From: an uncultured Clostridia bacterium | GTDB taxonomy: Bacteria; Bacillota; Clostridia; TANB77; CAG-508 | Assembly: GCA_963556825.1 (NCBI GenBank) | Contig: CAUWAM010000001.1 | Location: 685-64,684, forward strand | Direction of reading: 5' to 3' | Length of the DNA: 64,000 nucleotides | Shown: positions 2,276-62,273 of the stretch, one piece after another | How positions within the stretch are numbered: the stretch's first letter is position 1 | Layout of the letters: each line of letters begins with the position of its first letter | Notes under the pieces: generated by a model | Seen by the model: the letters and a program-made list of their open reading frames with translations, nothing else | The model's database searches: none | Told to the model about the DNA's origin: nothing | Translations under genes and position numbers: made by a program

Positions 2276-3643
2276 ATGAATGTTGGATTTATATCACTAG
2301 GATGCAGTAAAAATTTAATAGACACAGAAGTAACAATTGGAAAATTTAAAAAAAATCATTATAAAATAGTAAATAAACCAGAAGATGCAGATATATTAGT
2401 TATAAATACATGTGGATTCATAGAAACAGCCAAAGAAGAAGCTATTAACACAATTCTAGAAATGGCAGAGTATAAAAATCAAAGATGTAAATATCTAATT
2501 GTAATGGGATGTTTGGTACAAAGATATTATGAGGATTTAGTAAAAGCTTTACCAGAAGTAGATTTATTTATAAAAATAGACGAGTATAATAATTTGTGGG
2601 AAAAAGTGGAAGATTTAATAAAAAGAAATATTGTTGAAAAATCAAAAACAAAAACTAGTACAAAAATTTCAGAAATTGGACCACTTCCAATGCCTACATA
2701 TGATGAGTTTTTAAATAGAGTTGTAACAACCGGTAAAAATTACGCTTATTTAAAAATTGGTGAGGGTTGTAGTAATAAATGTACTTATTGTGCAATTCCA
2801 TATATTAGAGGACCATTTGTAAGTAGAAAAATGGAAGATATTTTACAAGAAGCGGAAAAACTTGCAAATGAAGGAATAAAAGAAATAATATTAATAGCAC
2901 AAGATACAACAAAATACGGAGAAGATATTTATGGAAAAAGTAAATTAGCAGAATTATTAAAAGAAATAAGCAAAATAGAAGGAATAAAATGGGTGAGGTT
3001 TTTATATTCATATCCGGAGGGAATTACAGATGAATTAATAAACGTAGTTGCAAATAACTCTAAAATATCAAAATATTTTGATATACCAATTCAACATATA
3101 TCAAACACTGTACTAAAAAAGATGAATAGAAAAACTTCAAAAGAAAAGATAGAAGACTTAATAAAAAAGATTAGAAATAAAATTCCAAATGTTACACTAA
3201 GAACAAGCTTAATAGTAGGTTTTCCAGGAGAAACAGAAGAAGAATTTAGAGAGCTTTTAGAATTTGCAAAAAAATCTAAATTTGATAAATTGGGAACATT
3301 TATGTATTCTAAAGAAGAAGGTACACCAGCAGCGAAACTTCCAGAACAAATACATGGAAATACTAAAAAATCAAGATACAATAAAATAATGAAAGTCCAA
3401 AAACAAATTTCTTTAGAAAAGCAAGAAAATAAAATAGGAAAAACATATAAAGTTTTAGTTGAAAATATATCTTTTGATGGAAAATATTTTATAGGAAGAA
3501 CAATGCAAGACGTACCAGAAGAAGATGGACTAGTATATATAAAAGATGCTTCAAAATATAAACAAGAAGATATAGTAAATCATTTTGTGGAATGCAAAAT
3601 TGAAGAGGCAAGCGAATATGATTTAATAGGAAAAATGGTATAA
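2276..3643 (+). CDS. rimO: ribosomal protein S12 methylthiotransferase RimO (MiaB family radical SAM plus TRAM domain)
   Basis: N-terminus MNVGFISLGCSKNLIDTE is RimO-like; a CxxxCxxC radical SAM cluster (GCSNKCTYCAIP) is present, plus a C-terminal TRAM-like region; 455 aa. Confidence 0.75.
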   Translation: MNVGFISLGCSKNLIDTEVTIGKFKKNHYKIVNKPEDADILVINTCGFIETAKEEAINTILEMAEYKNQRCKYLIVMGCLVQRYYEDLVKALPEVDLFIKIDEYNNLWEKVEDLIKRNIVEKSKTKTSTKISEIGPLPMPTYDEFLNRVVTTGKNYAYLKIGEGCSNKCTYCAIPYIRGPFVSRKMEDILQEAEKLANEGIKEIILIAQDTTKYGEDIYGKSKLAELLKEISKIEGIKWVRFLYSYPEGITDELINVVANNSKISKYFDIPIQHISNTVLKKMNRKTSKEKIEDLIKKIRNKIPNVTLRTSLIVGFPGETEEEFRELLEFAKKSKFDKLGTFMYSKEEGTPAAKLPEQIHGNTKKSRYNKIMKVQKQISLEKQENKIGKTYKVLVENISFDGKYFIGRTMQDVPEEDGLVYIKDASKYKQEDIVNHFVECKIEEASEYDLIGKMV

Positions 3644-14702: not shown

Positions 14703-15704
14703 TTATATTTCAATACTTATAGCATGAGCAACACCAGGGATACTCTCTCCTTGTTGAGAAGAAGTAGAGTTTGTTAAAGCTCCAGTTGCAATTAAAAGCA
14801 ATTTTTTAATCTTTTTCTCCTTTAATTGCTTAAATAGATAACCAGAAAAAACAGTACCACAACAAGCACAACCACTACCACCAGAATGAGTGTCTTGAGT
14901 AGCTTTATCAAAAATTAAAACACCACAGTCATTATAATTAGGTTTAATATTATAACCTTGGGCTTTAACAATATCAATAGCAATACTTTTTCCAATATGG
15001 CCTAAATCACCACTAATAATAGCATCATAATAACTTGGATTTCTACCAGTATCAAGAAAATGAGCGATAAGTGTGTCAGCAAATGCAGGTGCCATAGATG
15101 CACCCATATTATTTGCATCTTTAATTCCCATATCCACAATTTTTCCTGGCGTTATATGAGTAATATAAGGTCCCTGACCGTTTTTGGTAATTATAGTTGC
15201 TCCAGAACCAGTAACAGTCCATTGAGCTGATGGAGGTCTTTGATTTCCTAATTCAAGAGGAAATCTAAATTGTTTTTCTGCACTACAAAAGTGACTAGAA
15301 GTAGCACATAAAACATTTTCGGCAAAACTTTCAACACAAATAGAAGCTAAACAAATAGACTCTACAAATGTAGAACAAGCACCGAATACTCCAAAAAACG
15401 GTAAGTTTATTTCTCTAAGTCCAAAGCTAGAAGAAATACATTGATTTAAAAGATCACCTGCAAAACAACAATCTATTTTATCTGAAGAAATTCCAGATTT
15501 ATGAATTACTGAATTTACAGTTTCTTTTATAATTTTACTTTCAGCTTTTTCCCAAGTTTTTTCACCCCAAAATTCATCTTCTAAAGTTTTATCAAAATAT
15601 TTAGCTAAAGGCCCTTGTGCTTCTTTTGGACCGACAATAGAGGCACATTCTAAAATAGTAGGGGGATTATCAAATTTTATAGTTTGTTTTCCAATCTTTT
15701 GCAA
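14703..15704 (-). CDS. spoVAD: stage V sporulation protein AD
   Basis: 333 aa thiolase/FabH-like fold; N-terminus MQKIGKQTIKFDNPPTILECASIVGPKE is typical of SpoVAD. Confidence 0.85.
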   Translation of the reverse strand: MQKIGKQTIKFDNPPTILECASIVGPKEAQGPLAKYFDKTLEDEFWGEKTWEKAESKIIKETVNSVIHKSGISSDKIDCCFAGDLLNQCISSSFGLREINLPFFGVFGACSTFVESICLASICVESFAENVLCATSSHFCSAEKQFRFPLELGNQRPPSAQWTVTGSGATIITKNGQGPYITHITPGKIVDMGIKDANNMGASMAPAFADTLIAHFLDTGRNPSYYDAIISGDLGHIGKSIAIDIVKAQGYNIKPNYNDCGVLIFDKATQDTHSGGSGCACCGTVFSGYLFKQLKEKKIKKLLLIATGALTNSTSSQQGESIPGVAHAISIEI

Positions 15705-15726
15705 AAAATCAACTCCTTTATTAAAA

Positions 15727-16191
15727 TTATACTAATGTCATAGACTGAGTATTAAAAATCAAATACACAATCCCCACGATTATAGAAGCAGAAATACCAA
15801 AAACTAAAACAGGACCAGCAACAGTAAACATTTTTCCACCAACACCCATAACATAGCCCTCAGATTTATATTCCATAGCAGGAGAAACAATTGAATTTGC
15901 AAAACCTGTAATAGGAACTAAAGAACCAGCACCAGCAAATTTACCAATCTTATTAAAAATATTAAGACCTGTTAAAAATGCAGAAATACCAATTAAAATA
16001 ATAGAAACAATAGTACCAGAAGTAGATTGGTCAAATCCTCGTGCTTTACAAATATTTAAAATAACTTGGCCTATTGTACAAATTAATCCACCAACCCAGA
16101 AAGCATTAAAACAATTTTTCCAAATAGGAGAATTAGGGGATTTTTGATTAACATATTCTTGATAAGTTTGCTTACTTTCAATAGGATTCAT
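15727..16191 (-). CDS. spoVAC: stage V sporulation protein AC
   Basis: 154 aa membrane protein with a SpoVAC signature (..FAGAGSLVPITGFANSIVSPA..). Confidence 0.85.
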   Translation of the reverse strand: MNPIESKQTYQEYVNQKSPNSPIWKNCFNAFWVGGLICTIGQVILNICKARGFDQSTSGTIVSIILIGISAFLTGLNIFNKIGKFAGAGSLVPITGFANSIVSPAMEYKSEGYVMGVGGKMFTVAGPVLVFGISASIIVGIVYLIFNTQSMTLV

Positions 16192-35232: not shown

Positions 35233-35709
35233 GTGGAAGAGAAAGACGTAATCCTTACACAAGAAGGATATGATAATTTAGATAAAGAATTAAATTATTT
35301 AAAAACAGAGAAAAGAGCTGAAATAGCAGATAGAATAAAAGTAGCATTAGGATTTGGTGACTTATCAGAAAATTCAGAATATGACGAAGCAAAAACAGCA
35401 CAAGCTGAAAACGAAGTAAAAATAGCTGAATTAGAAAACAAAATAAGACATGCAAAAATCATTGATGAAAGTGAAATTGATACAGATGTAGTCCAAATAG
35501 GAAATACTGTAAAAGTATTAGATATGGAATTCAACGAAGAAATAGAATATACAATAGTAGGTTCTACAGAAGTAGATTTAGCAGAAAACAAAATTTCAAA
35601 CGAATCACCTTTAGGTGTAGCATTATTAGGATCTAAAAAAAATCTTACAGTAGATGTAAATGCACCAGCAGGAATAATGAAATATAAAATTTTAGAAATA
35701 AAAAAATAA
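35233..35709 (+). CDS. greA: transcription elongation factor GreA
   Basis: GreA N-terminal coiled coil and C-terminal FKBP-like domain. The likely start is a GTG 8 nt after GGAGG ([14 protein letters not shown]..). The track starts at an upstream ATG inside the RBS. Confidence 0.85.
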
Positions 35710-35715
35710 AAAAAT

Positions 35716-35762
35716 AAAAGAGATTTTAAGAAAAGTATTCTTAAAATCTCTTTTATTTTTTT
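35716..35762. terminator. bidirectional terminator between greA and deoD
   Basis: 14-bp stem aaagagattttaag / cttaaaatctcttt flanked by A- and T-runs. Confidence 0.55.
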
Positions 35763-36483
35763 ATAACAAAATTGAACTGTCTAAAGCAAGTTTAATCATA
35801 TTATTTAACCCTGTTTGTCTTTCTTCAGCAGTAGCTACTTCAGTAATAAATTTAGAATCTACAACACTCATTAAACAAGAAGCTTTTTTATTTAAAATTT
35901 TTGCATTATAAAACAAAGAAAAAGCTTCCATTTCGGCAGATATAGGATTAAAATCATTAGGAATTCTAGATAGAAAATTATTAACATCAGTCATATAAAC
36001 ATCAAAACAATCAGTACAAACAGTATTACCTTTAAATAATTTTATATCATTATTTTTTGCTGTATTTTCAATAACAGAATTTAATTCATCATTAGAATTG
36101 ATAATATGACAATTGTCGTTATTTAAAGTAAAAGCATAGTTACTTTCAGAAAAAACATTATCACTAAGAATAATATCAAATAATTTTAACTCAGGTAAAT
36201 AAGCACCACAAGAGCCAATTCTAATAATATTTTCTACGTCATAAAATTTAAATAATTCATAACTATAAATACCCATACTAGGCATTCCCATACCAGAAGC
36301 CATTACAGAAATTTCTATACCTTTATATTTTCCAGTGTAAGCAAACATTCCTCTTACAGTATTAACCAATTTGTAATCATTAAAAAAATTCTCTACAATA
36401 TATTTTGCTCTTAAAGGATCACCAGGCATTATAACAGTTTTTGCAATATCACCTTTTTGAGCTGAATTATGTGGTGTTGACAT
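35761..36483 (-). CDS. deoD: purine nucleoside phosphorylase, DeoD type
   Basis: MSTPHNSAQKGDIAKTVIMPGDPLRAKYI..GMGMPS.. closely parallels the DeoD N-terminus; 240 aa. Confidence 0.85.
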   Translation of the reverse strand: MSTPHNSAQKGDIAKTVIMPGDPLRAKYIVENFFNDYKLVNTVRGMFAYTGKYKGIEISVMASGMGMPSMGIYSYELFKFYDVENIIRIGSCGAYLPELKLFDIILSDNVFSESNYAFTLNNDNCHIINSNDELNSVIENTAKNNDIKLFKGNTVCTDCFDVYMTDVNNFLSRIPNDFNPISAEMEAFSLFYNAKILNKKASCLMSVVDSKFITEVATAEERQTGLNNMIKLALDSSILL

Positions 36484-50050: not shown

Positions 50051-50129
50051 AACCTTGTAAAATAAACCCAATTGTGTTAATATAATAAATATATAAAATA
50101 AATCCAATTAAAAAGCAAAGTATATATAT

Positions 50130-50346
50130 TAAATAAAAACAGAGAAAATATCCTAGGCTGAAAGATATTTAAACAATATGTAGAAATTTCACTTTTTAGG
50201 ACTTCTTTTGAACAACAAAAGTAGAAAGAAGCGGTTGAACCGTTAAAACTATAATAAGGTTAGTTAGAAATAATAAACTAATAAATTTAGGTGGTACCAC
50301 GGAAATCCATTTCGTCCTATACAAATAGGATGATGTGGATTTTTTT
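50130..50346 (+). promoter_or_regulatory. T-box riboswitch leader (Phe specifier) for pheS-pheT
   Basis: Stem I AGAGA and distal-loop GCUGA motifs, a candidate specifier UUC-A (aaatTTCac), the T-box sequence AATTTAGGTGGTACCACGG (~50284-50302), then a terminator hairpin plus T7 ending at ~50346. Confidence 0.6.
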
Positions 50347-50480
50347 GAGACAGTTGGGACAGTCCAATTTTGTCTCATAAATTAAATCAAATATTGTCGA
50401 AAAATAAAAATAATAACAAAGTGACAAAAAATAACAAAAATAATGAGACAAAATTGGACTGTCCCAACTGTCTCAAAAGG
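50347..50480 (+). repeat. palindromic intergenic element, copy 1
   Basis: Perfect 31-bp terminal inverted repeats GAGACAGTTGGGACAGTCCAATTTTGTCTCA / TGAGACAAAATTGGACTGTCCCAACTGTCTC flank a ~68-nt A-rich loop with an inner IR TTGTCg..tGACAA. Confidence 0.7.
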
Positions 50481-50489
50481 AGAGAAAAA

Positions 50490-51539
50490 ATGAAAGAACA
50501 AATTTCAAAAATTAAAGAAACTTCAGTAGAAGAAATCAAAAAATCTGAAGATTTAAAAACTTTAAATGACATAAGAGTAAAATACTTAGGAAAAAAAGGT
50601 GAACTTACAGCAGTATTAAGAGGAATGGGAGGATTATCTCCAGAAGAAAGACCAATAATAGGGAGCTTAGTAAATGAAGTAAGAGATGAATTAGAAAAAT
50701 TAATTCAAGTAAAGGAAGAAAAATTTAAAGCAGAAGAATTAAATAAGAAATTAGAAAATGAAAAAATAGATATTACACTTCCAAGTACAAAAATAAAAAG
50801 AGGAAGTTTGCATCCAGTGAATAGAATAATTGAAGATATAGAAGATTTATTTGTATCAATGGGGTATGATGTAGTAACAGGACCAGAATTAGAAAATGAT
50901 GAGTATTGTTTTGAAAGATTAAATCTTCCAAAAGGGCATCCAGCAAGAGATATGCAAGATAGTTTCTATATAACTGATGAATATTTATTAAGAACACAAA
51001 CATCAGCAGTTCAAGCAAGAACAATGATGGCAAACACTGATAAAACACCAATCAGAATGATTACAGCAGGAAAAACATATAGAAGAGAAGATGACGCAAC
51101 ACACTCTCATCAATTTAATCAAATAGAAGGTTTAGTTATAGATAAAAAAGAAAGAAATGTTTCTTTGGCAGACTTAAAAGGAACACTAGAAGTATTTGTT
51201 AGAAAAATAATAGGAGCGAATCTAGATTTAAGATTTAGACCAAGTTATTTTCCATTTACAGAACCATCTTATGAAGTAGATGTTACATGTTTTAAATGTG
51301 GAGGAAAAGGATGTAATCTATGTAAGCAAACGGGATGGATAGAAGTTTTAGGAGCAGGTATAGTTCATCCAAATGTTTTAAAAATGAATGGATATGACCC
51401 AGAAAAATTTGGTGGATTTGCATTTGGAACAGGTATTGATAGACTTGCAATGTTTAGATACGGAATCACAGATATGAGATATTTATATACAAATGATGTC
51501 AGATTTTTAAATCAATTTGACAGAAAAGATGAAGAATGA
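50490..51539 (+). CDS. pheS: phenylalanine--tRNA ligase alpha subunit
   Basis: Class II core (..[12 protein letters not shown].., ..[13 protein letters not shown]..). RBS aaaaggagag. The track N-terminus is a translation of the repeat. Confidence 0.9.
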
Positions 51540-51671
51540 GACAGTTGGGACAGTCCAATTTTGTCTCATGATATACAGAAAATATTGTCGAAAAATAGTG
51601 TTAAATAATAAAAACGACAAAAAACAACAAAAACAATGAGACAAAATTGGACTGTCCCAATTGTCTCAAAG
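51537..51671 (+). repeat. palindromic intergenic element, copy 2
   Basis: Same 31-bp terminal IRs (1 mismatch in the right arm) with a related loop (inner IR TTGTCG..CGACAA). The element begins with the pheS TGA stop. Confidence 0.7.
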
Positions 51672-51683
51672 GAGGAAAGTAAA

Positions 51684-54056
51684 ATGAAATTAAGTTTGAA
51701 TTTTGTAAAAGATTATATAGATTTAGATGAAAATCTAACAGTAGAAGAAATAGCTGAAGCTATGACAAAGGCTGGAAATGAATATGATTCAGCAGAAAAA
51801 TTAGTAAATGCAACAAAATTAGTAATAGGTGAAATAAAAGAATGTGAAATGCATCCAGACTCTGACCATTTACATTTATGCAAAGTAGATATAGGAAGTG
51901 AAGTTTTAGATATAGTATGTGGTGCCCCTAATGCTAGAAAAGGTATAAAAGTAATAGTTGCACAAGTTGGAGCAGAACTTCCAGGAGATTTTAAAATAAA
52001 AAAAGGAATGATAAGAGGTCAAGAATCAAATGGTATGTTATGTGCTTTATATGAAATAGGAATTGATAAAAAATTTTTATCAGAAGAAGATAAAAATGGA
52101 ATACATGAATTGCCATCAGATGCACCAGTTGGAGAAGATCCAATAAAATATATGAAATTGGATGACAGCGTTATAGATTTTGATTTGACAGCTAACAGAG
52201 GAGATTTACTAAGTGTATTAGGTATGGCTTATGAATTGGGAGCAATATATGATAAAAAAGTAAAACCAGTTGAATATGGCTACAAAGAAAACGGAGAAGA
52301 TATAAATAAAGAATTTACTGTAAATGTAGATACAGAAAATTGTACATTATTTTTAGCTAAAAAAGCCAAAAATGTAATAATAAAAGAAAGTCCTGAATTT
52401 ATAAAAAATAGATTGATAGCTTGTGGAATTAGACCAATAAACAATGTTGTAGACATTAGTAATTATGTAATGATAGAATTAGGTCAACCATTACATTTCT
52501 ATGATGCTGATAATTTAGGAAAAGAAATACTTGTAAGAATGGCAGAAGAAGGTGAAAAACTAACAACATTAGATAATATAGAAAGAACTTTATCAAAAGA
52601 TGATATAGTAATTACAAATGGAACAAAAGCAATAGGATTAGCTGGTGTTATGGGTGGATTAGATACAGAAGTAGAAGAAACAACAAAAAATGTAATAATA
52701 GAATCAGCAATATTTGACTCTGTAAAAGTAAGAAAAACATCAAACAAAATATTAAGAAGTGAAGCAAGCAACAGATTTGAAAAAGGATTAGACCCAGCAA
52801 GAACATATATGGCTATGGAAAGAGCTTGTACATTACTTCAAAAATATGCAGATGCAGAAATTGAAACAGGAATTGTAAAATATGACATAACAGAAAATGA
52901 AGAAAAAGTAATTGAAATTTCATATAAAGAAATAAACGATGTATTAGGAACAAACATATCAAAAGAAAATATAGTAGACGTATTTAGAAAATTAGACTTT
53001 AAAACAGAAGCAAAAGAATATACAGTAATAGTTACAGTACCAACAAGAAGAATAGATATATCAATAAGAGCAGATTTAATTGAAGAAGTTGGAAGAATCT
53101 ACGGAGTTGACAATATAGAAGGAAAATTACCAGTGGTTCCAATGAAAATGGGACACTTAGACAAAACAACAAGAAAAATAAGAGCAAAAATGTCAAATAT
53201 GGGACTAAACGAAACATTATCATATATATTAATAAATGATAAAGATGTTCACAAATTCTCAACAGATGAATTTGAAGAAGTTAGAGTATTAGATCCAATA
53301 ACAGAAGAAAGAAACACATTAAGATATAGTATTATACCATCATTATACAAAATTTACGAATACAACAAAGCTCGCGAAAACAAAGATGTTTGTTTGTTCG
53401 AAATTGGAAAAGGTTTCTGGAAAAAAGACGAAAAATATGGGGAAAACCAAAAAATATGTGTATTAATGACAGGAAAATATTATGAAGGAATAGGACTTAG
53501 CAAAAATGTAGACTTTTATGATATTAAAGGAGTTACAGAAGAATTACTTGACTATTTAGGATATGCAGGAAGATATAGTTTTGTATTACCAAAACAAATG
53601 CCAGCAGAATTCCACCCAGGTCAAACAGCAGAAATATCTGTAAATAACGACATAGTAGGAATTATAGGAAGAATTCACCCATCAGTAGAAAAAGAAGCTG
53701 TTTATGTAATGGAAATTAATTTAGATAAATTACTAGCAAAAAGAGTAGGAAAAATGAAATTTAAAGAAATATCAAAATTTCCAGTTGTAAAAAAAGATTT
53801 AGCTTTATTAGTTAACAAAGATATCACTTCAAAAGAAATTGAACTGTTAATCAAGAAAAAAGCTGGAAAATTATTGCTAGATATAAATGTTTTTGATGTC
53901 TACGAAGGTAAAAATATAGATGTAAACAAGAGAAGTATTGCATATTCATTAACATTTGGAACACCAGACAGAACTTTAAATGATGATGAAATAAATAAAA
54001 TTTTAGATGCAATTATAAAAGACTTAGAAAATAAAGGATTTGAAATAAGAAAATAG
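51684..54056 (+). CDS. pheT: phenylalanine--tRNA ligase beta subunit
   Basis: MKLSLNFVKDYIDL.., with tRNA-binding, B3/B4, B5 and FDX-ACB domains; 791 aa. RBS aaaggagg. The track N-terminal extension is a translation of the repeat. Confidence 0.9.
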   Translation: MKLSLNFVKDYIDLDENLTVEEIAEAMTKAGNEYDSAEKLVNATKLVIGEIKECEMHPDSDHLHLCKVDIGSEVLDIVCGAPNARKGIKVIVAQVGAELPGDFKIKKGMIRGQESNGMLCALYEIGIDKKFLSEEDKNGIHELPSDAPVGEDPIKYMKLDDSVIDFDLTANRGDLLSVLGMAYELGAIYDKKVKPVEYGYKENGEDINKEFTVNVDTENCTLFLAKKAKNVIIKESPEFIKNRLIACGIRPINNVVDISNYVMIELGQPLHFYDADNLGKEILVRMAEEGEKLTTLDNIERTLSKDDIVITNGTKAIGLAGVMGGLDTEVEETTKNVIIESAIFDSVKVRKTSNKILRSEASNRFEKGLDPARTYMAMERACTLLQKYADAEIETGIVKYDITENEEKVIEISYKEINDVLGTNISKENIVDVFRKLDFKTEAKEYTVIVTVPTRRIDISIRADLIEEVGRIYGVDNIEGKLPVVPMKMGHLDKTTRKIRAKMSNMGLNETLSYILINDKDVHKFSTDEFEEVRVLDPITEERNTLRYSIIPSLYKIYEYNKARENKDVCLFEIGKGFWKKDEKYGENQKICVLMTGKYYEGIGLSKNVDFYDIKGVTEELLDYLGYAGRYSFVLPKQMPAEFHPGQTAEISVNNDIVGIIGRIHPSVEKEAVYVMEINLDKLLAKRVGKMKFKEISKFPVVKKDLALLVNKDITSKEIELLIKKKAGKLLLDINVFDVYEGKNIDVNKRSIAYSLTFGTPDRTLNDDEINKILDAIIKDLENKGFEIRK

Positions 54057-60582: not shown

Positions 60583-62226
60583 ATGAAAGTAACATATGAG
60601 AAAAAAGAAATTACAGTAAAAGAAGGAACAACAGTAAAAGAAGCTTTAAAAGAAGAAATTGAGCAAAGTAGATATGAAGTAATTGGATGTAGATACAATA
60701 ACGAGTATTTTAATTTGAATAAAAAAATTGAAGAAGATGCAAACATAAGCCTAATAGATATATCTGACAAAGAAGGAGCAAAAATATATAGAATGACACT
60801 AGTATATATAATGGGTAAAGCATTTGAAAGTTTGTATCCACAAGAAAAGCTAACAGTTGAATATCAATTAGGAAATGCTATGTTTTGCAAATGTGATAAT
60901 ATGGAAATAGAAGAAACATTTATAAAACAATTAAAAGAAAAAATGCAAGAAATAATAGATAAAGACTTAAAGATAGAAAAAAAGGAAATGACAAGAGAAG
61001 AAGCAAAAAAAATTTATGAAAAAACAGATACATCAAAAGGGAGATTGCAATTAGATTTTGAAGAAAACAAAATAATAAATATGTATTTTTGTGAAAATTA
61101 TTTTAACTATTGTTATGATACAATTGCAGATTCAACAGGAAAAGTAAAAATATTTGATGTTGTAAGATATCAAGATGGATTTTTAATTAGATACCCAAGT
61201 TCAAAAACACCAACAGAAATGTCTGAATTTAAAGATACAAAAAAATTAGCATGGGCACTAGAAGAATTCGAAAAAATACATGCTGTCCTAGATGTAATGA
61301 CAGTATATAAATTAAATAAAGCAGTAGAAGAAAATAGAATCAAAGATATAATAATGCTTGCAGAAGCATTACACGAAAAGAAAATTGCAAATATTGCAGA
61401 TGATATTAAAAAAAGAAAAAATATAAAAATGGTATTAATAGCAGGACCATCATCATCAGGAAAAACAACATTTGCACAAAGATTAGGAATTCAACTACGA
61501 TTAAATGGTATAAAACCAGTAACACTATCAGTAGACAATTATTTTGTTGAGAGACAAGACACACCAAGAAATGAAAATGGAGAATACAATTTTGAATGTA
61601 TAGAAGCAATAGATTTAAAACTATTTAATGAACATCTAGTAAAATTATTAAGAGGAGAAGAAATAGAAGTACCAGAATTTGATTTTAGTGTTGGAACAAA
61701 AAGATACAATGGTAAAAAAATGAAATTAGCAGAAGATGAAATTCTTGTAATAGAAGGAATTCATTGTTTAAATGACAAATTAACAAGTCAAATAGAAAAA
61801 GATAAGAAATACAAAATATATATAAGTGCATTAACTGTACTAAATATGGACAGATACAATAGGATTTCTACAACAGACACAAGACTTATAAGAAGAATTG
61901 TTAGAGACTACCAATTTAGAAGTTATTCAGCAATACATACACTAAATACTTGGCATCAAGTAACAGATGGGGAAGAAAAAAATATATTTCCATTCCAAGA
62001 AGATGCAGACAAAATATTTAACACTTCACTTATATATGAATTAGGAGCATTAAAACCAATTGCAATGCCATTATTAAAAGAAATAAAAAAAGATAATATA
62101 GAATATGCAGAAGCACAAAGATTAATAAATATATTAAAATATTTTAGAGAAATACCATCAGAATATGTGCCAGACAATTCATTATTAAAAGAATTTATTG
62201 GAGGAGGAACATTCGGGTTACATTAG
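60583..62226 (+). CDS. TGS-domain / uridine kinase-family fusion protein
   Basis: N-terminal TGS-like (MKVTYEKKEITVKEGTTVKEAL) and ThrRS-second-domain-like region, then a uridine kinase P-loop IAGPSSSGKTTFAQRL; 547 aa. Confidence 0.65.
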   Translation: MKVTYEKKEITVKEGTTVKEALKEEIEQSRYEVIGCRYNNEYFNLNKKIEEDANISLIDISDKEGAKIYRMTLVYIMGKAFESLYPQEKLTVEYQLGNAMFCKCDNMEIEETFIKQLKEKMQEIIDKDLKIEKKEMTREEAKKIYEKTDTSKGRLQLDFEENKIINMYFCENYFNYCYDTIADSTGKVKIFDVVRYQDGFLIRYPSSKTPTEMSEFKDTKKLAWALEEFEKIHAVLDVMTVYKLNKAVEENRIKDIIMLAEALHEKKIANIADDIKKRKNIKMVLIAGPSSSGKTTFAQRLGIQLRLNGIKPVTLSVDNYFVERQDTPRNENGEYNFECIEAIDLKLFNEHLVKLLRGEEIEVPEFDFSVGTKRYNGKKMKLAEDEILVIEGIHCLNDKLTSQIEKDKKYKIYISALTVLNMDRYNRISTTDTRLIRRIVRDYQFRSYSAIHTLNTWHQVTDGEEKNIFPFQEDADKIFNTSLIYELGALKPIAMPLLKEIKKDNIEYAEAQRLINILKYFREIPSEYVPDNSLLKEFIGGGTFGLH

Positions 62227-62273
62227 AATAAAAATTACAAAATAAAATAAGGAACTCGAAATCAAAAACAAAA

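Follow-up and report, generated by a model that had tools for sequence, protein, structure and literature searches.

Two hairpin-forming elements lie in the T-box-regulated pheS-pheT (pheST) operon of an uncultured Clostridia bacterium, within a stretch of 64,000 nucleotides (nt) of contig CAUWAM010000001.1 (assembly GCA_963556825.1) that we call the window and whose positions are used throughout. We conclude that these elements are probably non-autonomous, REPIN-like doublets of a clostridial repeat family of the RAYT/TIRYT type, and not a new RNA regulator. A single chromosomal tyrosine transposase (HUH/Y1, of the RAYT/TIRYT type) with a C-terminal helix-turn-helix (HTH) would move the family in trans; in relatives, its gene lies between recD2 and comFC, enclosed in a 'giant' copy of the element.

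Two inverted doublets in the pheST operon

Four occurrences of the 31-mer GAGACAGTTGGGACAGTCCAATTTTGTCTCA in the window form two inverted pairs, at 50347-50377 (+) and 50444-50474 (-), and at 51538-51568 (+) and 51637-51667 (-, with one mismatch); shuffled sequences gave no occurrence. Taking the bounds of each element as a 31-mer pair plus a constant outer T and A, copy 1 is a REPIN-like inverted doublet of 130 bp (50346-50475, +) between the T-box terminator and the Shine-Dalgarno (SD) sequence of pheS, and copy 2 is one of 132 bp (51537-51668, +) between pheS and pheT. Beyond these four units, an nhmmer search with the family profile found none in the window.

Copy 1 opens with a 32-nt left arm, TGAGACAGTTGGGACAGTCCAATTTTGTCTCA (50346-50377, +), an imperfect palindrome with a GGGACAG core. 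There follow, on the same strand, an inner box TTGTCGAAAA (the reverse complement of TTCGACAA; 50394-50403), which includes a Spo0A-like TGTCGAA, and the phased boxes GTGACAAAAAA-TAACAAAAATAA (50421-50443), which continue into the right arm, where GAGACAAAA forms a third box. The right arm (50444-50475, -) ends 3 nt upstream of the pheS SD, GGAG (50479-50482). Copy 2 repeats this order, with a left arm at 51537-51568 (+), an inner box TTGTCGAAAA at 51585-51594 (+), phased boxes CGACAAAAAA-CAACAAAAACAA at 51615-51636 (+), and a right arm at 51637-51668 (-) that departs from the consensus by one C-to-T change and ends 1 nt upstream of the pheT SD, AGGAGG (51670-51675). The phased boxes were placed by position counts over 67 distinct units.

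The arms of the two copies match at 63 of 64 positions, and the loops, 66 and 68 nt long, are 77% identical. As RNA, copy 1 folds at -65.0 kcal/mol (z = -15.6) and copy 2 at -62.7 kcal/mol (z = -13.3), with stems of 33-36 bp; the stem of copy 1 attains 36 bp through the flanking U-tract and A-run, in that four T at 50343-50346 (50346 being the constant T of the element) pair with the A-run 3' of the copy. As single-stranded DNA (ssDNA), the doublets fold at -42 and -38 kcal/mol and a single arm at -7.2 kcal/mol (z = -3.2).

A preliminary description of this DNA had reported two hairpin copies in a T-box-regulated pheS-pheT operon, which the 31-mer scan, the folds and the Rfam search bear out. 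Its perfect 31-bp arms hold for copy 1, whereas those of copy 2 match at 30 of 31 positions as DNA (with a G.U pair in the plus-strand RNA), and its loops, similar as it said, had been put at about 68 nt and about 80% identity. The compensatory change that it saw in an inner hairpin is one-sided (C to T, turning G-C into G.U) and not double, and the selection on structure argued from that hairpin is left unsupported by a change on a single side.

A dispersed family of singlets and doublets

An exact scan of species-representative genomes with a 22-nt core recovered 20 loci, several per metagenome-assembled genome (MAG) and all in MAGs that come from the guts of humans, mice and chickens and bear the label uncultured Clostridia or Clostridium, and a slightly degenerate scan of metagenomes added 89 further stretches. 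The element is thus present elsewhere as a dispersed family, and its spread over many MAGs and metagenomes rejects a one-off local duplication, the outcome against which the preliminary description had set its own proposal. The 22-mer had no match in viral contigs, and a phage origin was rejected on that ground. Over the fetched loci we counted 38 doublets (112-147 bp) and 83 single arms, with lower bounds on copy number of at least 24 units on 14 contigs in one low-coverage sample and at least 14 units in one MAG. The host group is a genus-level set of uncultured, low-GC, spore-forming gut Clostridia, and relatives carry the sporulation genes spoVA, spoIIM and spoVT.

The arm consensus, built from 67 distinct units, is 32 nt long and reads TGAGACA-N18-TGTCTCA with an invariant GGGAC.GTCC centre. 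Interior to the arm stand two (T)CGACAAAA boxes spaced about 10-11 nt apart, a phase that the arm's own GAGACAAAA keeps, and the repeat unit therefore comprises two phased boxes followed by the arm, about 55-60 nt in all. Single units retain an TTCGACAAAA box beside the arm, and a doublet consists of two units placed head to head about a variable A/T-rich centre. TGTCGAA, which the preliminary description had put forward as a Spo0A box, is indeed present in both loops (at 50395 and 51586) and at two more sites in the window. It is the reverse complement of the inner box, which is kept in most copies, and its presence in the element is better explained as part of the phased (T)CGACAAAA box present in all units, those beside the transposase gene among them; the Spo0A match is probably incidental.

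At the spoVAD site of one metagenome contig (L067, 10860-10960), the SD-proximal arm is gone and the box and distal arm are kept (aactccttt-TTTTCGACAAAATTA-arm), showing that doublets decay to singlets through the loss of one arm. Upstream of a small gene of the RNHCP zinc-ribbon type in the window (62222-62270), a 48-nt spacer with a weak SD holds the string CTCGAAATCAAAAACAAAAA; the corresponding site holds a doublet in L013, L019 and L048, and the string is possibly a decayed remnant of the element's boxes.

A Y1 transposase gene flanked by the arms in relatives

In locus L072, inverted arms 936 bp apart surround one gene (2737-3483) whose 248-residue product matches Pfam Y1_Tnp at 28.2 bits (cut-off 23) and, near its C-terminus (residues 226-248), HTH_7 and HTH_8 weakly. 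The protein has more than 1000 homologues, in many of which HTH Pfam families are precomputed, and the motifs NHAH and YIHMNPV are invariant across an alignment of 34 of them. A profile of these 34 members finds as its best match in the PDB 4ER8, the TnpA-REP of E. coli (E = 7.6e-4), over a span that covers the HUH motif and the catalytic tyrosine. The AlphaFold model (mean predicted confidence, pLDDT, 88.6) likewise matches the fold of 4ER8 best (E = 1.3e-6), ahead of the TnpA proteins of IS608 and ISDra2, and its C-terminal half is all-helical. Matches to CD8 structures in a single-sequence phmmer search of the PDB were spurious and were discarded in favour of the profile and fold searches.

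Inverted arms with inner GTCGAA/TTCGAC boxes surround the Y1 gene in five relatives (L072, L123, L126, L128 and L130). The orthologues of the L072 gene that have flanking arms are 80, 77 and 75% identical to it in protein sequence, joined by L130 at 52%, where the arms themselves have diverged to GGGGACAC and GGGGGACAG cores. The order recD2 (YrrC), Y1 gene, comFC-like gene, KAP NTPase gene is constant from 99% down to 52% protein identity. No DDE transposase bounded by arms was found among the fetched loci, and the Y1 protein is the sole product of an arm-bounded gene there.

The arms that flank the Y1 gene overlap its neighbours (2593-2624 and 3539-3592 in L072, and the same in L123, L126 and L128). 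The last seven codons and the stop of recD2 (..EFKMRQLGQS, then the stop) are read from the left arm, and the ComFC-like gene has a single available start, which is upstream of both the TTCGACAAAA box and the right arm (MTKFDKIMRQIKTVPNVSK...). Real protein termini thus appear to be encoded by repeat DNA. Many of the homologues are on contigs of about 1-2 kb (most of those numbered P0121-P0240), as would be expected if repeats enclose the gene; short-read assemblies of metagenomes would thus seem to be interrupted routinely here by the repeats on either side. One other Y1 protein was considered, an ordinary IS200-type TnpA of 168 aa (Pfam Y1_Tnp) that a close relative encodes (L024, 183-689) at a distance of 2.3 kb upstream of its pheS. 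It was rejected as the mobiliser, as it has hairpin ends of its own that are unrelated to the arms, and it is absent from the window.

Insertion sites and pheST orthologues

Every copy is bounded by T/GAGACAG...CTGTCTC/A (slashes marking the junctions) and lies within an A-rich tract. No target-site duplication was found in the flanks of 20 doublet copies, drawn from the window and the genome loci. At the spoVAC-spoVAD junction (15700-15740, -), which a doublet fills in at least 7 relatives, the allele of the window is empty and served to define the insertion point; excising GAGACAG...CTGTCTC from the filled spoVAD alleles restores ...AAT/AAAGGAG, as in the window, with no duplication. The preliminary description had likened the elements to MITEs (transposable elements of the miniature inverted-repeat kind) or REP repeats and had looked to duplicated target sites as a check. 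None occurs at the sites examined, and together with the dispersal in relatives, the single arms and the arm-flanked Y1 gene this favours the REP/REPIN side of that comparison.

The nearest orthologues of pheST (85-93% identity in PheS) do not have this element, and it is therefore not a conserved pheST regulator. Some of these close orthologues have overlapping pheS and pheT, and others have unrelated palindromic repeats in the same two spacers; in L065, a doublet of the present family occupies the pheS-pheT junction, and the TGA of its arm again serves as the stop. Both pheST spacers are, on this evidence from relatives, recurrent landing sites. A nucleotide-exact empty site was not found for either pheST insertion, the nearest relatives having a PheS 93% identical and other sequence at these positions. 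Judging by the sequence, the pheS stop would have arisen by insertion into T/AA before AGGAGG, from an ancestor of the form ...GAAGAA-T/AA-AGGAGG.

The unrelated palindromic families occur in relatives whose PheS is 91-93% identical, in the spacer that separates the T-box terminator from the pheS SD and in that between pheS and pheT (L024 2880-3000 and L025; L032 about 700-965 and 2016-2189; L030 4057-4195; L028 and L065 upstream of pheS). The one in L024 forms a stem of about 27 bp from AAGGGGACGTTTAC arms and has one more copy of the arm, the third, upstream of the T-box, and that in L032 is a repeat of about 115 nt present in both spacers. Several of these families have a GGGAC(A/G) core, and by this resemblance they may belong to paralogous Y1 systems.

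One further site is of an unusual kind. In L036 (983-1112), the two ends of a doublet abut the SDs of divergent genes for a TrmH-like methyltransferase and an LD-carboxypeptidase-like protein, with no room for a promoter; in L101, the second of these genes follows a co-directional gene and a single arm. Either recombination between repeats has produced an inversion here, or the low-coverage assembly is chimeric. With coverage of about 2x, frameshifts, and a join at a repeat that may be chimeric, the locus was not used as evidence for an internal promoter.

Constraint on the arms and position next to SD sequences

At the spoVAD site in seven genomes (21 pairs), the 64 arm bases are 100% identical, with identity at 75.6% in the loop and at 87.3% over spoVAD's first 300 nt; the arms are under constraint and, at orthologous sites, more conserved than the adjacent coding sequence. 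Arms within one doublet are more alike than arms from different doublets. When paired arm positions were followed over the copies, a check that the preliminary description had proposed, the two arms were found to covary: 18 cells changed on both sides as against 6.5 in shuffles, a count that none of 500 shuffles reached (0/500), and changes on both sides occur in 6 of 30 arm pairs, well above shuffles and slid controls.

An SD, a start codon and an open reading frame (ORF) directly follow the arm in 20 of 67 distinct flanks, as against 1.7% of random non-coding positions (p = 7.5e-20), and several arms provide the stop codon of the upstream gene, as at pheS and recD2. Part of this SD bias arises because insertion favours A-rich T/A tracts and operon spacers are very short. 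New here are the strong tendency of arms to abut an SD, the use of an arm TGA as the upstream stop, and a conservation of arms at orthologous sites that exceeds that of coding sequence nearby.

Genes and leader around the elements

The T-box leader of pheST spans 50098-50322 (+; Rfam RF00230, 100 bits against a gathering score of 93). A terminator scan and folding place its terminator at 50312-50343 (+), a hairpin at 50312-50333 followed by a T run. The pheS gene (50490-51539, +; ATG at 50490; 349 aa, with PF01409 and PF02912 in its homologues) ends in a TGA (51537-51539) that coincides with the first three bases of copy 2, just as the preliminary description had it. The pheT gene (51684-54056, +; 790 aa) starts at ATG 51684. 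A mechanically called ORF (51636-54056) begins 48 nt earlier, at an ATG in the right arm of copy 2 (MRQNWTVP...). The earlier suspicion that the elements create spurious MRQNWTVP N-termini is right for this ORF and wrong for that of pheS, whose mechanical extension (from TTG 50370) is in another frame.

No match of the elements to Rfam 15 reached a gathering score; the only ones, below threshold, were to plant miRNA-precursor models, which we take as generic responses to long hairpins, and membership of a known RNA family was rejected. A promoter inside the element was rejected as well, with sigma-70 scan results below chance and no site reading into pheS or pheT; visual inspection of the half-elements showed no good -35/-10 pair. 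A terminator role for the long stems was rejected because no U-tract follows the stem on either strand. The terminator pattern is matched only by the short hairpin of a single arm on the minus strand, antisense to pheST.

Elsewhere in the window (GC content 26.9%), A and T runs flank a perfect, AT-rich palindrome of 27 bp with a loop of 5 nt (35706-35764). It resembles a bidirectional intrinsic terminator and has no relation to the repeat family.

Comparison with known repeat systems

The closest resemblance is to the TIRYT proteins and TIRtron elements, in which a GGGGWSAS motif lies in terminal inverted repeats (TIRs) that recur as singlets and dimers (Di Nocera, De Gregorio and Rocco 2013, PMC3733652). 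As in that system, the protein is RAYT-like with an HUH/Y1 domain, is longer than RAYTs (about 248 aa) and bears an additional HTH at its C-terminus; inverted repeats stand on both sides of the gene at fixed distances and extend into neighbouring ORFs; the arms are partly self-complementary and recur elsewhere in the genome, in moderate number, as singles and dimers; and the GGGGWSAS core is approached here by TGGGACAG (7/8) and met in full by GGGGACAC (8/8), found together with GGGGGACAG in the 52% orthologue L130. Unlike it, the present family numbers tens of copies, takes a defined doublet form in which GACAAAA boxes are phased, and is markedly placed beside SDs and stops. Proteins that combine Y1 and HTH form subclass 2.1 of the TnpA-REP proteins (Quentin et al. 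2018, PMC6006769), which is equivalent to TIRYT, and according to the same authors the genes of this subclass have no REP-like repeats nearby. The 26 TIRYT examples of PMC3733652 include no Clostridia or Firmicutes (neither word is in the text). Group 1 RAYTs have been reported from Clostridia (PMC5581495).

With the REP/REPIN-RAYT systems (Nunvar 2010; Bertels and Rainey 2011, PMC3116915; Ton-Hoang 2012; structure 4ER8), the family shares a short, imperfect and extragenic palindrome whose doublets form long hairpins, a single-locus Y1 transposase gene flanked by an inverted repeat (known here from relatives), the lack of target-site duplications and the retention of repeats at orthologous sites. 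It differs from them in a longer arm (32 nt) without a GTAG/CGTC tag, in an HTH on a protein that scores below the NCBIfam RAYT cut-off, in having tens and not hundreds of copies, in a Gram-positive anaerobe as host, and in a position mostly 5' of genes at the SD and not at 3' ends.

The Correia elements of Neisseria (CREE/NEMIS) offer what we consider the best functional analogy for a possible effect of the pheST copies on their mRNA. They are about 100-150 bp long with inverted repeats of about 26 bp, are co-transcribed, and form long RNA hairpins that are bound or cleaved by RNase III (PMC2649163). Their TA target duplication and their promoter and integration host factor (IHF) sites are absent here, and they have no associated Y1 transposase. 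With the insertion sequences (IS) of the IS200/IS605 family and with PATEs, their derivatives associated with palindromes, the family would by analogy share HUH/Y1 chemistry and recognition of ssDNA hairpins, and it shares the lack of target-site duplications. IS200/IS605 elements have distinct left and right hairpins, a TnpA of about 130-170 aa without HTH, and the habit of a multi-copy mobile IS, whereas here the ends are inverted copies of one arm and the gene keeps to one syntenic locus; the fold and profile matches of the Y1 protein likewise favour 4ER8 over the TnpA proteins of IS608 and ISDra2.

Weighing the alternatives

Several observations weigh against a RAYT/TIRYT-type family as the explanation. 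Neither a GTAG nor a CGTC tag is present at either arm end in the consensus of 67 units, the best NCBIfam match of the L072 protein, REP_Tyr_transpos, scores 58.5 bits with the cut-off at 80, and the copy number runs to tens, not hundreds. By tblastn, the 64-kb window holds no homologue of the Y1 protein, and neither recD2 nor comFC was found in it, so that the link to the transposase rests on relatives and not on this genome; mobility or catalysis by this protein family is not demonstrated in the papers cited. The covariation of the arms could come from the propagation of arm subfamilies and not from selection on pairing, and the SD bias and arm conservation could reflect host selection for an RNA or DNA function, which would make the elements more than transposed repeats.

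The last point leads to an alternative that we judge distinctly unlikely, namely that the doublets are primarily host-selected, cis-acting RNA modules 5' of the SD (serving RNase III processing, protection from 5' decay or insulation of translation) and repeats only secondarily. The SD-start-ORF excess after arms (20/67 against 1.7%, p = 7.5e-20), the great stability of the stems, the conservation of arms beyond that of coding DNA at orthologous sites and the covariation of paired positions all speak in its favour, as does the precedent of the Correia elements, which are described as bound and cut, or protected, by RNase III (PMC2649163). Yet arms also occur singly, at gene 3' ends, within the called recD2 and comFC ORFs and in spacers that have no SD; the genes downstream are functionally unrelated (pheS, pheT, radical SAM, ABC-F, dprA, spoVAD, ileS, SDR and others); and close pheST orthologues (PheS 85-93%) either lack the element or have unrelated hairpins in the same spots. 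The adjacency to SDs, moreover, owes something to the A-rich T/A target sites and the very short operon spacers. Two other readings seem to us very improbable. A classical MITE, a deletion derivative of a DDE IS moved by cut-and-paste through its 31-bp TIRs, would account for long inverted repeats that start with TG and end with CA, for the small size and for the genome-wide dispersal, but no target-site duplication accompanies the examined sites, the filled/empty pair included, single arms outnumber doublets, and the only arm-bounded gene found encodes a Y1/HUH protein in fixed synteny and not a DDE enzyme. That the arms and TGTCGAA are DNA operators, bound by Spo0A or another HTH factor controlling the adjacent genes, is no more credible: TGTCGAA is a perfect 0A box kept in most copies, each arm is a nested palindrome of the kind typical of dimer-bound sites, and the organisms sporulate (spoVA, spoIIM and spoVT genes), but the box belongs to a phased repeat of GACAAAA that runs on into the arm and persists beside the transposase gene, the elements lie downstream of promoters in transcribed leaders and operon spacers (behind a T-box terminator and behind a stop codon), where there is little for an operator to act on, no sporulation theme links the genes nearby, and the element has no promoter-like site above chance.

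Proposed mechanism and significance

For the family of REPIN-like doublets that we favour, the transposase would recognise the arm as an ssDNA hairpin, by analogy with TnpA-REP and the IS200/IS605 enzymes, and its C-terminal HTH may bind the GACAAAA boxes. On this reading, copy 1 inserted downstream of the U-tract that closes the T-box terminator and ahead of the pheS SD, and copy 2 at or in the pheS stop just before the pheT SD, where the TGA of its arm now ends pheS. The read-through pheST transcript is expected to carry two hairpins of 33-36 bp that end 1-3 nt before each SD, and the absence of a U-tract after them argues that they are not terminators. The cell may tolerate these hairpins or draw a mild benefit from them, as RNase III or stability elements comparable to Correia and REP sequences; RNase III processing would free the T-box leader and split the two cistrons. 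Cleavage by RNase III, for which such helices should make ideal substrates, or stabilisation of the pheST mRNA, as the preliminary description had suggested, is physically plausible.

A bolder version, which we think unlikely, is a Gram-positive REPIN-RAYT partnership with co-opted doublets. These would be constrained beyond coding sequence and placed, with precision to the nucleotide, between a stop or terminator and an SD, there to act on single cistrons as RNase III, stability or translation-insulator modules, with the HTH transposase maintaining them through the GACAAAA boxes. The precise placement at SDs and stop codons is the one feature that classification as a RAYT/TIRYT-type family leaves unexplained.

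To our knowledge, REP/REPIN-RAYT systems have been studied almost only in Proteobacteria, and we know of few or no repeat families associated with TIRYT-type relatives and of none from Clostridia. The family would thus offer a clean Gram-positive case, with a compact unit, singlets and doublets, a transposase whose syntenic locus is fixed despite deep divergence, and alleles both filled and empty. For annotation it carries a warning as well, in that arms give stops (pheS, recD2) and false or real N-termini (pheT, comFC), as well as breaking metagenome assemblies. In the pheST operon, long hairpins have been inserted into an essential operon after a riboswitch-like T-box, and if their placement next to the SD is functional, they would provide a tractable model of how selfish hairpin repeats are recruited to mRNA processing.

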